Below the pieces are notes generated by a model. It saw nothing but the letters and a program-made list of their open reading frames with translations, searched no databases and had not been told where the DNA came from. From Schmidtea polychroa (Eukaryota), in assembly GCA_044892525.1 (NCBI GenBank), contig CM097885.1:8992001-9056000 (forward strand): 64,000 bases of DNA, in the 5' to 3' direction. Position numbers and translations under genes: made by a program. Below, piece after piece: positions 30,346 to 36,760 of the stretch (positions are counted from its first letter, which is position 1; every line of letters begins with the position of its first letter).

Positions 30346-30724
30346 TTAACAAAGATGTTTATACATTAGCCAAGCTAGACAATGTTGTCCACAAGTATTT
30401 GTTAATGGATGTTGAAACCGAATTTTATTGTAATCAACTTGACCAATAGTTGATAGCTTTTTGATCAATAGGGCTGGATAGTAAAATCCCATTGGATCGA
30501 AAACATATATTTTATTCGGCTTCACATAGACTGCAATCCAATGTTCTCCACCCAGAGTAGACGAATCTGTGTTGACAATTATGGCTTGATTCACATCTAA
30601 ATAGGGGATTTTGTCTAGTGGGTACACTCCAACAAACTCTTTACCTAATATTTGAGTACCAATTCGATTTATCTGAATAGAACTAACATAATAATTTTAT
30701 TAGTTTAAAGAAAACTTACTCCAT
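30346..30724 (-). CDS. Adenain-like cysteine maturation protease (exon 1 30724-30720, 37-nt intron 30719-30683, exon 2 30682-30346)
   Basis: VNTDSSTLGGEHWIA, FDPMG, FQHPLTNTCGQHC (His/Asp/Gln/Cys); no in-frame ATG unless ATGGA/gtaagt...ttag/TTCT is spliced, giving MDSIQINRIG. Confidence 0.88.
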
Positions 30725-30753
30725 GACAAATGTATTTCGATTTATTCACACAT

Positions 30754-30898
30754 TTATACTAGCACAGTTCTATTTGCAGTAATTTGAACTTCATTTTCAA
30801 ATACTCCATATATAATAACATGTACCGGTTCAGTAATGGCTCTTGCAAACTTTATATCCAGTCGTAAATTCCCGTTTTGTGGTAATTGACTCTGATTT
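30754..30898 (-). pseudogene. C-terminal remnant of the major capsid (hexon-like, double jelly-roll) gene
   Basis: NQSQLPQNGNLRLDIKFARAITEPVHVIIYGVFENEVQITANRTVLV*, resembling Polinton MCP C-termini; longer homologous piece at 53782-54177. Confidence 0.8.
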
Positions 30899-30970
30899 TA
30901 GCCATCCTGATCCGTACTGTTTACCAACGAAGTATGGTAATTCACCGCCAGATTGGCTATCACTATACAT
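30899..30970 (-). pseudogene. N-terminal remnant of a PZ-like virion protein, fused by deletion to the MCP tail
   Basis: MYSDSQSGGELPYFVGKQYGSGWL: QxGG..P.F.G..Q.G.G pattern, located between penton and MCP as in Mavericks. Confidence 0.6.
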
Positions 30971-30986
30971 ACTAATAATATCAGAA

Positions 30987-32054
30987 TTAGCCATCTACTT
31001 TACGAAAATGTAATGTCAAATGAGTATTCGAATCTTTTGGAAAGTTTATAAGGTTTCCACTATCGTCACGAATATTTATTTCTATATTGTTTATACATGA
31101 GCTTGCAATTGGTAAATACATGGGATTATCGATATTTATATTGACAACTTCATCGTGTTCATATTTTCCAATCCATACCGATTTCAATAGAGGAACACTG
31201 GAATCACCAACAATTATGGGCTCAATAATATTAGTATATATGAACATTTGTTGATGATGTTCAAGTATTCTTGGTTTACGTATACCATCAGCTTTTCCTC
31301 GATATTTTTGCTTCTCTAATCCAAGTGTATTTGTCAAATTTTTATCAAATGTAACTTCGCAAATTTCATCATTCAAACTGAAAGTAAACAACAAATCTTT
31401 CACAATGTCCAAACTTTTAAATATGTGTGAACAATTGTACTTTAAATATTTAAGTAACACATCAAGTTTATCAATATATAATTCGTCAGCAAAGGTGAAT
31501 GATTTCTCAACTTCATTATTATACGACACTGATATTTTGATTTCTTCTTTCATTAAACTGTTTGCTTCAAATAGATCAAAACGTAATAAATATTCTGTTT
31601 CCATAACATCATTTTTCAACTTATTGCAACCCATTCGTTTGGCATCTTCAATAGTTTCGAATGTTATTGTAAATGGTTTAAAATCACAACTGATATTTAA
31701 TCCATCCTTGTAAAATATATAGCAATGCTGATCTAATATTTGATTCGGAATATGATATGTTTTATCATAATTACTGATGACAAAGATACCGCTACATGTT
31801 TTCAGAACATTCTTTTTGAAATCAATCTTACATTGACTATAAAATGGGAATGTGTTGTACACGAATGTAAAATCTTGAAGTGCAACTTCCCAGTCACCAT
31901 TTAAAGAAATCGGATTCTGGAGATTGACCATGAATTTGCTGAATTGATTGTCCGGATGAATTAATGGGCAGCTATTGCTTGGTAAAATAGTATAGAAATT
32001 CACTTTACTAGGTCCTTTTCTGATATCCATGATGGGTTTTGATATCCATGCCAT
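30987..32054 (-). CDS. Minor capsid protein (penton-like)
   Basis: FYTILPSNS..PDN..SKF..L..PI.L.GDWEVAL N-terminus and MFIYTNIIEPIIVGDSSVPLL...IEINIRDDSG..I.F...LTLHFR C-terminus; start uncertain because it overlaps the integrase end. Confidence 0.85.
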   Translation of the reverse strand: MAWISKPIMDIRKGPSKVNFYTILPSNSCPLIHPDNQFSKFMVNLQNPISLNGDWEVALQDFTFVYNTFPFYSQCKIDFKKNVLKTCSGIFVISNYDKTYHIPNQILDQHCYIFYKDGLNISCDFKPFTITFETIEDAKRMGCNKLKNDVMETEYLLRFDLFEANSLMKEEIKISVSYNNEVEKSFTFADELYIDKLDVLLKYLKYNCSHIFKSLDIVKDLLFTFSLNDEICEVTFDKNLTNTLGLEKQKYRGKADGIRKPRILEHHQQMFIYTNIIEPIIVGDSSVPLLKSVWIGKYEHDEVVNINIDNPMYLPIASSCINNIEINIRDDSGNLINFPKDSNTHLTLHFRKVDG

Positions 32055-34845: not shown

Positions 34846-34981
34846 TAATTTTAAAAAATAAAATCATGTGATTGCAAATTCGATGCAACTGAAATGCATG
34901 ATTCTGATTGGTCGAAATCTAATTGGCTGATGATGATTATTTATAACAAAATGTTTTGGGTTTAGTTATCATTTTTAAACC

Positions 34982-35354
34982 ATGTATAATATTCAAAGTT
35001 CAGCTATAGCTGCCATGAAAGAACATGAACATTATGGTAAATTTAAATTTTTTAATATTAATTGTATTTATCATATTATTATTATTTACAGATGAATATC
35101 ATGCAATAATACTGGAAAGATTGTATTTTTATTACCCGCAATTGTATGATATTCTCAAAGATCGAGATGTTGCAATAATCCCAGATTTAATTTACAATGA
35201 AACCAGAATCTGGATTTTCGATATTATCAATACATTTCTCTGGGATGTGAAGATTGGAAGAACAATGAAGGAAGTGGAAGCAGAATACCCTTGCATTTTG
35301 GGATGTAGCTGTTGCAATTTCGCTACCAGAGATATGTCGAATGGTCTTTGGTAA
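34982..35354 (+). CDS. Hypothetical element protein (exon 34982-35036, 55-nt intron 35037-35091, exon 35092-35354), Cys-rich C-terminus
   Basis: Splicing gives MYNIQSSAIAAMKEHEHY-D-EYHAIILERL...PCILGCSCCNF; upstream GATTGG/TATAA, downstream AATAAA. Confidence 0.65.
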
Positions 35355-35757
35355 AGACACTTCGTAATTATCATTTTTGTCAAATTTTATCCAAATAAAT
35401 TTTTATGTTTAACTATTTGTTGTTTTATTTTTTTTTTAGTAAATAGTAATAGAAATATAAATAAGATTAATAATAATAATAATAATAATAATAATAATAA
35501 TAATAATAATAATAATAATAATAATAATAATAATAATAATAATAATAATAATAATAATAATAATAACAATAATGAAATTAGTTTGAAAGTAATAAAAGCA
35601 ATAAAAATAATAATATGACACATATAACATATGACAATGCAACATCAATGCATTTTGAATGTAATTAAAACAAAGACATACTGCAATTTGATTGGTTTAT
35701 AAACAATAGTCATATGTATAAAAACCCTGTACCATTACAATTCAATCATAATTCACG

Positions 35758-36180
35758 ATGACCAAGAAAATATCAAGCACAGAAAAACCAAAGGTTGTTG
35801 TTGCAGAACTTGTACAACCTGTTCAAATGTTCCACGACTACAAAATGTATTTTTTAAAAGAAGAAATCAATATGAAATTGGTGTCACCGATCAAGCTAAT
35901 TTCTACTCAATTTCAATTCTTATCCGGCACACTTTCAATGATAGATGTTGAATCTATTGATGAGGTTTTCAAACGGTTGGATGCAAATCTATCATGTAAT
36001 CAACATGCATGGTTCAACAACCGATATGCAAGATTTTATGATTCCTTTGATGAAATCAGCTTTAAAGAAAACGAAAATTGGTATATAACAATAGCAATCT
36101 TGGGATATAAAGTTGATAATAATGATGTGTATTCTCCAATTTGGAAAATTATGTCTGCTAGACTTTCACAGCTATTTTAA
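35758..36180 (+). CDS. Hypothetical 140-aa element protein (possible OB-fold ssDNA-binding protein)
   Basis: Clean ATG ORF with TATAAAA 41 nt upstream and AATAAA at the stop; the fold assignment is only a guess from the beta-rich aromatic C-terminus. Confidence 0.65.
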   Translation: MTKKISSTEKPKVVVAELVQPVQMFHDYKMYFLKEEINMKLVSPIKLISTQFQFLSGTLSMIDVESIDEVFKRLDANLSCNQHAWFNNRYARFYDSFDEISFKENENWYITIAILGYKVDNNDVYSPIWKIMSARLSQLF

Positions 36181-36338
36181 TAAATGTTGCTATATTTATT
36201 GTTTTTAATAAATGTATTTTGTCCTATTTGTTTTTCATTTACTTAACCAGGAAATTGCAATATCAATGCAAAATACATGCAAACTTTAAAAAAGACATTC
36301 TATAAACAAACTTACATTATAGTTTTAAAGTGTTAATA

Positions 36339-36760
36339 ATGACGTTAGAAAAAGGTTAATATGGTTAGTTAATGATCGAATTATTTATTGTTTAGAACAT
36401 TTAATCAACTTTTTGTTGGCAAAATTAGCAGAAATATCTGGTGTAAAAATGGAGGATATATTATCTGTTTCAAATGCATTAAATATAGACTGGGTAGCCG
36501 AGAGTGAAGATTCAAGATTTGATGAAACTGATGAGGAAATAACAGAACAAATTAATGAAGGAAACACACAAGAAGATGACGAGGAAATCATTCAAGAAAT
36601 TGATGAACCTATTGATGAACCTAAGGAGGAATTTACGGATTATATAACTGAAAATATTAAGTATACCGAACCGCGTGTATATAACGATTGTATAGATCAT
36701 ATCGTTGAAAATGTTATGAAATGCGGAGATGATGAATGTGAATGTGTTAATAAATTTTAG
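36339..36760 (+). CDS. Hypothetical acidic protein (exon 36339-36354, 41-nt intron 36355-36395, exon 36396-36760)
   Basis: Splicing gives MTLEKEHLINFLLAKLAE in frame with track ORF 36413; TATAAA at 36301. Confidence 0.6.

Follow-up and report, generated by a model that had tools for sequence, protein, structure and literature searches.

Our analysis of a 64,000-nt window of the Schmidtea polychroa genome (GenBank assembly GCA_044892525.1, contig CM097885.1, positions 8,992,001 to 9,056,000 of the forward strand, numbered here from 1) indicates that, as judged from sequence, it contains a Polinton/Maverick element with inherited introns in two core genes, the protease and the integrase, and in at least four accessory genes, an arrangement that appears to be new within Polinton/Maverick elements. 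Very probably, the host's major spliceosome removes these short, AT-rich introns from nuclear transcripts, and the introns are borne by the element and were gained at different times. Across copies, the segments hold a fixed position and phase with a body that drifts in sequence and length, and in their GT..AG ends they look like the U2 type. Fixed ends around a drifting interior are the signature expected of spliceosomal introns.

Which features identify the element as a Polinton? Pfam searches with the window proteins recovered a protein-primed DNA polymerase B (PolB; 27061–29694, plus strand, 5'-truncated; DNA_pol_B_2, E 1.8e-29), an rve integrase with a chromodomain (32000–33079, minus strand; rve, E 4.9e-8; Chromo, E 4.7e-4) that has 1275 homologues, an adenain-type (C5) protease (30346–30724, minus strand; Peptidase_C5, E 2.9e-7) and an A32-like packaging ATPase (33642–34280, minus strand; Pox_A32, E 1.1e-6), as well as TBP-like and RING-finger proteins. 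The double jelly-roll (DJR) major capsid protein was recognized through a 426-aa open reading frame (ORF) of the copy L019, with an Atlas feature score of 0.98; a DJR-like domain occurs in 65% of the members of the Atlas cluster that it matched. A Pfam search with the capsid ORF gave no match, and the window holds only a remnant of the gene. Terminal inverted repeats (TIRs), AG..CT ends (AGT..ACT) and clean 6-bp target duplications are found in other copies, namely in four of the seven examined, which carry introns; the window copy is rearranged. Intronless core ORFs, a trait of vertebrate and nematode descriptions that is no formal criterion, are not a feature of this element, its integrase and protease being split.

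The intron-bearing Polinton, roughly 15 kb in size, is present in many hundreds of copies in the host genome. Our copy set comprised 30 of 34 full-length integrase matches (of the remaining four, three belong to the window or to locus L002 and one was omitted); these copies fall into two subfamilies, A and B, with one gene order. The copy in the window is broken: PolB is truncated at its 5' end, most of the capsid gene is lost, a frameshift disrupts the TBP-like gene, and the element has no right end. A full copy has 13 genes, five with introns. The other eight, PolB, the major capsid gene, PX, a small ORF preceding the capsid gene, the ATPase, the TBP-like gene, ORF 33141 and ORF 35752, each form a single ORF in one or more full copies as far as their coding part is concerned, and PolB is an uninterrupted 1338-codon ORF in L045 and L046. 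Since these eight genes lack a split, intron gain is better described as stepwise and inherited; the "systematic gain" proposed in the first-pass annotation of the window was an overstatement, also because the protease and integrase introns differ in age.

The five GT..AG segments listed in that annotation are all present with the lengths it gave: 37 nt in the protease (30683–30719, minus strand, phase 2, donor GTAAGT), 66 nt in the integrase (32626–32691, minus strand, phase 1), 55 nt in ORF 34982 (35037–35091, plus strand, phase 1), 41 nt in ORF 36339 (36355–36395, plus strand, phase 1, weak donor GTTAAT) and 48 nt in the RING gene (43017–43064, plus strand, phase 0). The interval assigned to them, 30683–36395, is correct for four and misses the RING segment. 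Four lie near the start codon, as noted before, at 5 (protease), 55 (ORF 34982), 16 (ORF 36339) and 42 nt (RING) from the ATG, and without splicing the respective reading frames end after 2, 37, 6 and 29 residues. The integrase segment does sit inside a conserved motif, D-x-G-x-E-F, but it is in frame and stop-free in the window copy, so that the ORF stays open without its removal and gains 22 mostly isoleucine residues.

Restoration of an in-frame ATG, another argument of the first-pass annotation, is real but of little weight by itself. Among 1000 dinucleotide shuffles per gene, 20–48% permitted an ATG-restoring GT-AG segment with any GT donor, and 0.4–1.4% did so with a GTAAG donor. Calls from a single copy are thus near chance, and the case rests on comparison. 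The likeness in size to host introns is partial: gaps in the CHD-like gene include 40–54 nt GT-AG options, sequence-based candidates that serve as a rough yardstick, and the first gap of the TRAF-like gene has no candidate. That gene (50037–51152) adjoins a Polinton fragment and, with one gap lacking a GT-AG candidate, is a doubtful host reference. A related element from a metagenome (L084:1530–2732) carries as cargo an ORF that we take to be TRAF-like from its motifs, plus a RING gene. Alignment with intronless homologues, proposed as a check, places the gap exactly on the segment in the integrase and the protease; for ORF 34982, ORF 36339 and the RING gene, no intronless homologue that spans the junction turned up.

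The protease intron is the main new point. It separates a first exon consisting of the ATG and 2 nt (30724–30720) from the remainder of the gene (30682–30346), and the first in-frame methionine of exon 2 is residue 64, past the histidine motif at residue 47. GT..AG ends bound a 36–37 nt segment in 27 of 27 copies anchored by their exons (a table whose search pattern required GTAAG is circular for donor conservation and was not used), and in sister families, donor and acceptor are intact at 15 of 18 protease 5' ends. The intron-bearing pattern had 2032 matches in the genome, compared to 48 for a reversed control (100 listed, part of them checked), and the intronless junction of the window family had none. 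Eight of 50 metagenome loci found by integrase alignment include the protease. Six of these (L070, L071, L075, L079, L080 and L090), 49–56% identical, show an ATG, two bases, GTAAGT, a different body of 37–47 nt and AG, in the same phase and with five distinct bodies among them; in the more distant L100 and L103, the protease starts without an intron, and L100 lies outside the clade of intron-bearing elements in a midpoint-rooted integrase tree. Five of ten database homologues (P0123, P0126, P0127, P0128 and P0130) start with methionine at or beside the matching place, and the remaining five have a later start or read through intron-like sequence. We infer that the protease intron is old and was gained once, before the families of the host genome split from several metagenome elements. 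In L070, L071, L075 and L090, the protease ATG follows within a few bases of the capsid stop, whereas in the window family about 35 nt, with TATAAA and AATAAA motifs, lie between the two genes; the protease may be expressed differently in the two cases.

The integrase intron presents a different history. Its exons (33079–32692 and 32625–32000) flank an (ATT)n body, arranged as GT-(ATT)n-TTAG. In 34 of 34 copies the segment has GT..AG ends, with lengths of 42–150 nt that in five are not a multiple of three, and four body types of 40–150 nt occur. A second copy in the window has a 67-nt intron, not a multiple of three (40206–40272, minus strand), and a third, degraded copy one of 150 nt (52821–52970, plus strand). 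The D-x-G-x-E-F motif is contiguous in all 120 listed homologues and uninterrupted in every one of the 44 metagenome loci, of 50, that reach it. Genome-wide, at least 881 junctions contain a GT..AG insert of 32–62 nt, among them plain bodies of 40, 42 and 43 nt that cause in-frame stops or frameshifts, compared to 110 junctions of sister families with no insert. Loci L116–L149 were chosen by junction pattern, and their 20:14 split is therefore not a frequency. A midpoint-rooted tree of the 38 loci, out of 90, whose flanks are free of stops, together with 11 database proteins, needs two state changes, which correspond either to two separate gains at a single AG|GT site or to one gain with loss or recombination. 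The integrase intron is limited to some families of the host genome and is probably younger than the protease intron.

Direct repeats at the integrase junction measure 5–11 nt, compared to 0–2 nt at the other four window sites, and a 10-nt repeat flanks the segment in a phosphatase gene of a relative. The longer integrase repeats would fit a younger origin by local duplication. One may also consider the segments as mobile introners derived from the host, given that such insertions are present in Polinton-like proviruses of dinoflagellates (PMC11957031) and that short direct repeats occur at some junctions. We deem this very unlikely: the bodies are unrelated, with 2 of 55 pairs at p<0.05 against shuffles (a comparison of element bodies, with host genes outside the search), those of the five listed segments are AT-rich and 37–66 nt long, and the sites are common to families rather than scattered.

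The accessory genes extend the pattern. ORF 34982 (34982–35354, plus strand; exon 1 34982–35036, exon 2 from 35092) encodes a Cys-rich protein, and its 3' frame in the window differs from that of most copies; neither a word search nor Atlas returned a homologue. Its intron has GT..AG ends in 23 of 25 copies, with lengths of 44–61 nt across all three frame classes. Site and phase are kept in the divergent homologues L024, L126/L127 and L142–L144, where exon 1 measures 52, 22 and 10 nt, respectively, and in all of them Tyr-Pro stands at codons 15–16 past the junction. The acidic ORF 36339 (36339–36760, plus strand; exons 36339–36354 and 36396–36760), for which no family was found, has GT..AG ends in 27 of 28 copies, all with a 41-nt segment and a weak donor; L147, 31% identical, carries a 42-nt GTAAAA..TTAG segment at the same site.

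The RING-finger gene (42975–43613, plus strand; exons 42975–43016 and 43065–43613; Pfam zf-C3HC4_3) is cargo of related elements, being absent from 29 of the 30 fetched window-family copies and located beside Polinton genes at 16 of 18 dispersed loci. The layout is kept at 16 of 18 loci, with an exon 1 of 42, 48, 51 or 57 nt and an intron of 45–48 nt; indels in exon 1 are always multiples of three, those in the intron are not. As exceptions, L168 lacks the ATG, and L167 and L171 do not match the layout. The homologue P0132 aligns from residue 13 of exon 2, upstream of the first methionine at residue 75. A sixth segment, phase 0 with GT-AG ends at one site and with differing bodies, occurs in a Bcl-2-like cargo gene (L034:5071–5226, minus strand; L142:8680–8727; and 16 other copies) that is absent from the window copy. 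Its body is (ATT)n in the window family and plain, about 44–46 nt, in others; the Bcl-2 label itself is weak (Pfam Bcl-2, E 0.0036, below the cut-off, and weak PDB matches to BCL2A1).

Genes of relatives and the RING locus provided further observations. The metagenome element L069 has its own 40-nt GT-AG segment in a TBP-like gene (377–416), and L071 a 46-nt one in a phosphatase-like cargo gene (about 872–917) whose L084 homologue is one ORF. The RING gene has been amplified into a tandem array with units of about 1.03 kb (window 20048–24254; G000:C1:8.68–8.79 Mb), a stretch that contains 39 of the best 40 RING matches; four further copies in the window have exon 2 starts at 20376, 21397, 22430 and 23457, and in the window copies one zinc-ligand position is altered. 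The sequence upstream of the RING gene, 41790–42640, is another repeat, with no Polinton gene in four of four fetched copies.

Why would a mobile element accumulate such introns? The first-pass annotation suggested that they aid expression or escape from the silencing of intronless foreign DNA. Four introns within 55 nt of the ATG and separate gains in the TBP and phosphatase genes of relatives are consistent with this idea, as is the enrichment of introns in latency genes reported in the available text on a latent algal giant virus (10.64898/2026.10.09.758095). Yet eight of 13 genes, those for the polymerase and the capsid among them, are without a coding intron, at least 110 copies belong to sister families whose integrase is intronless, the 5' bias stems partly from how the introns were spotted and from the small size of the genes, and Polintons of Schmidtea mediterranea are, according to the part of PMC8532177 available, strongly repressed by piRNAs. 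We therefore consider gain or retention for these purposes unlikely, if conceivable.

Several findings weigh against inherited spliceosomal introns or against the order of events given above. Three of the 18 sister protease 5' ends (L135, L143 and L148) have lost the donor or the acceptor, the acceptor of ORF 34982 is AA in two of 25 copies, and one ORF 36339 donor is GC (GC..AG, one of 28). Because the ORF 36339 segment measures 41 nt in all 28 A and B copies, length drift provides no support at that site. A single origin of the integrase intron, with the nine intron rows placed together, is weakly rejected (AU p 0.044), which, along with the mosaic appearance of the families, leaves the order of events uncertain; the duplication origin is read from short repeats in very AT-rich DNA.

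The transcript comparison belongs to the same list. It used assembled contigs from five runs, whose RNA status was guessed, aligned to window 30300–35440 and to locus L061; the integrase segment, being a repeat, was bypassed, ORF 34982 was uncovered in the guessed-RNA runs, and the RING gene lay outside. One X1 contig spans 30371–30792 without a gap and keeps the protease segment, and X1, X2 and X8 contigs run into or end inside this segment on L061. No spliced joint at a candidate intron was seen among the joints shown (15 of 97 for the window, and 11 for L061); contigs of this kind show presence and not absence, so that the lack of such a joint carries no weight. X1 may be DNA, as its contigs reach every one of the 30 bins of L061, terminal repeats included. 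The retained segment counts weakly, given that with about 2000 copies DNA carry-over or read-through would look the same.

Retention of the segment could also signify a regulated switch, with a two-residue product from unspliced transcripts and protease only upon splicing, for example during late particle formation. In support, the donor supplies an in-frame TAA directly behind the ATG, elements that are only about 50% identical share the site, and the contigs seen retain the segment. However, any phase-2 GTAAG donor yields such a stop by default, the contigs that retain the segment may represent DNA or read-through from part of the roughly 2000 copies, and distant relatives lack the protease intron, which makes such a switch unlikely.

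A more mundane explanation would be decay after insertion, or microsatellite insertions in dead copies with GT-AG ends by chance. In its favour, several genes of the window copy are broken, ATT repeats make up the integrase body, calls made on one copy hardly differ from chance, and no spliced read was seen in material that consisted of assembled contigs. Decay cannot, however, place different bodies at one site and in one phase across families and outside elements; the intronless protease junction of the window family has no match in the genome, and intron-bearing copies inserted with clean duplications. This explanation is extremely unlikely. As for the proposal of five host-type spliceosomal introns, the comparison of copies, families and outside relatives supports it strongly, and RNA lends it no support.

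We propose the following model. The segments occupy fixed positions in the genome of one Polinton lineage and are inherited with the element; they are likely spliceosomal introns, which the host's major spliceosome would excise from the element's nuclear transcripts. Gain likely proceeded gene by gene and not in one sweep, and intronless relatives exist for both the protease and the integrase. The protease intron would have come first, as a single old gain made before the families of the host genome diverged from several of the metagenome elements. Later, and probably by a short local duplication, the integrase intron would have appeared at a single AG|GT site, in one event or two; in the window family, its body would then have turned into a growing ATT repeat. 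After its gain, an intron would be retained because production of the protein requires its ends, so that these genes would depend on nuclear splicing. More tentatively, one may speculate that the entire Polinton lineage is splice-dependent, with the ancient protease intron as an on/off gate for virion maturation and with introns still being added at AG|GT sites of integrase and cargo genes, in parallel at the one integrase site, although we regard this extended version as improbable.

The remaining features of the window concern the rest of the element. The 3' remnant of the capsid gene is fused to the 5' end of the preceding small ORF, the middle being deleted (30757–30994, minus strand, from a tblastn map of copies). 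The adjacent single ORF (30987–32054, minus strand), without a match in the Pfam search, is presumably PX, a putative minor capsid (penton) gene, a label that we assume from position and motif; relatives L066, L067, L075 and L136 have two tandem PX genes. Comparison of copies supports ORF 33141, a conserved basic protein (33141–33629, minus strand), and ORF 35752 (35758–36180, plus strand) as single ORFs. The TBP-like gene (34382–34845, plus strand; Pfam TBP) has a frameshift near 34600 and is intact elsewhere; an intron at this split, which would have been the sixth, was rejected, as the gene is in one frame in other copies. By eye, a possible small ORF with a 49-nt GT-AG segment (35612–35951) runs across the 5' end of ORF 35752 in a different frame. 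Windows 14766–19053 and 24894–29178 form a 4.3-kb inverted duplication (99.4%) with two PolB fragments that point away from the RING array. The host genome assembly comprises 781 Mb in four large contigs and is AT-rich with ATT repeats.

If inherited, the introns imply that the genes of this lineage are transcribed and spliced by the host nucleus. They also bear on annotation, since core genes are usually annotated as single ORFs, and pipelines considering ORFs only would call such proteases and integrases truncated or dead and miscount intact elements. In addition, intron gains that can be dated against intronless sisters occur within one genome. The contrast between 110 intronless and at least 881 intron-bearing integrase junctions provides a natural control for intron origin and for the escape of mobile DNA from silencing.

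How does this element compare with known systems? Our literature searches listed no paper on conserved introns of the spliceosomal type in the core genes of Polintons; Repbase and supplements were outside their scope, and an earlier annotation there is possible. Nothing on spliceosomal introns in Polinton genes appeared in the available portions of PMC10748475, PMC8502044, PMC6431247, PMC10175614, PMC11296320 and 10.64898/2026.07.28.741278, and a scan of a viral contig collection found no relative. In the excerpts available, PMC9356565 assumes viral genes to be free of introns, PMC12220804 describes group I introns in PLVs, and PMC8532177 describes piRNA repression of planarian Polintons. With adintoviruses (Starrett et al., PMC8502044), animal Polintons, the element shares adenain, PolB, an rve integrase and an FtsK-type ATPase; the accessible text of that paper has no match to "splic" and one to "intron", in a figure legend on another virus, and leaves spliced genes unmentioned.

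Intact vertebrate Mavericks, as far as the consulted part of their description goes, have eight conserved ORFs with no introns observed (Barreat and Katzourakis, PMC8097293). The window lineage resembles them in its protein-primed PolB, rve integrase, C5 protease, ATPase and capsid genes, in its TIRs and in the 6-bp duplication, and differs from them in having conserved GT-AG segments in two core and several accessory genes. Nematode Mavericks with wasp or krma cargo, in the portion of 10.1101/2022.07.12.499685 available, combine intronless core genes with intron-bearing cargo. Cargo with introns is found here too (RING, Bcl-2-like, ORF 34982 and ORF 36339), whereas the integrase and protease are split in addition, and intronless relatives point to gain inside the element. 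Maverick-Polinton-like proviruses of dinoflagellates, according to the sections of PMC11957031 consulted, contain introners, repeated mobile insertions acquired mostly after integration. Both systems feature spliceosomal-type introns within Polinton-like elements; unlike introners, those described here have unrelated bodies and sites inherited across families. Punuivirus, a latent giant virus of Chlamydomonas, has RNA-validated introns in 61 of 506 genes, including latency genes, as stated in the accessible part of 10.64898/2026.10.09.758095. Punuivirus and the window element are both DNA viruses that integrate and have host-like GT-AG introns in part of their genes; unlike in Punuivirus, the introns here are inferred from sequence, the element measures only about 15 kb, and an intron also interrupts a virion-maturation gene.

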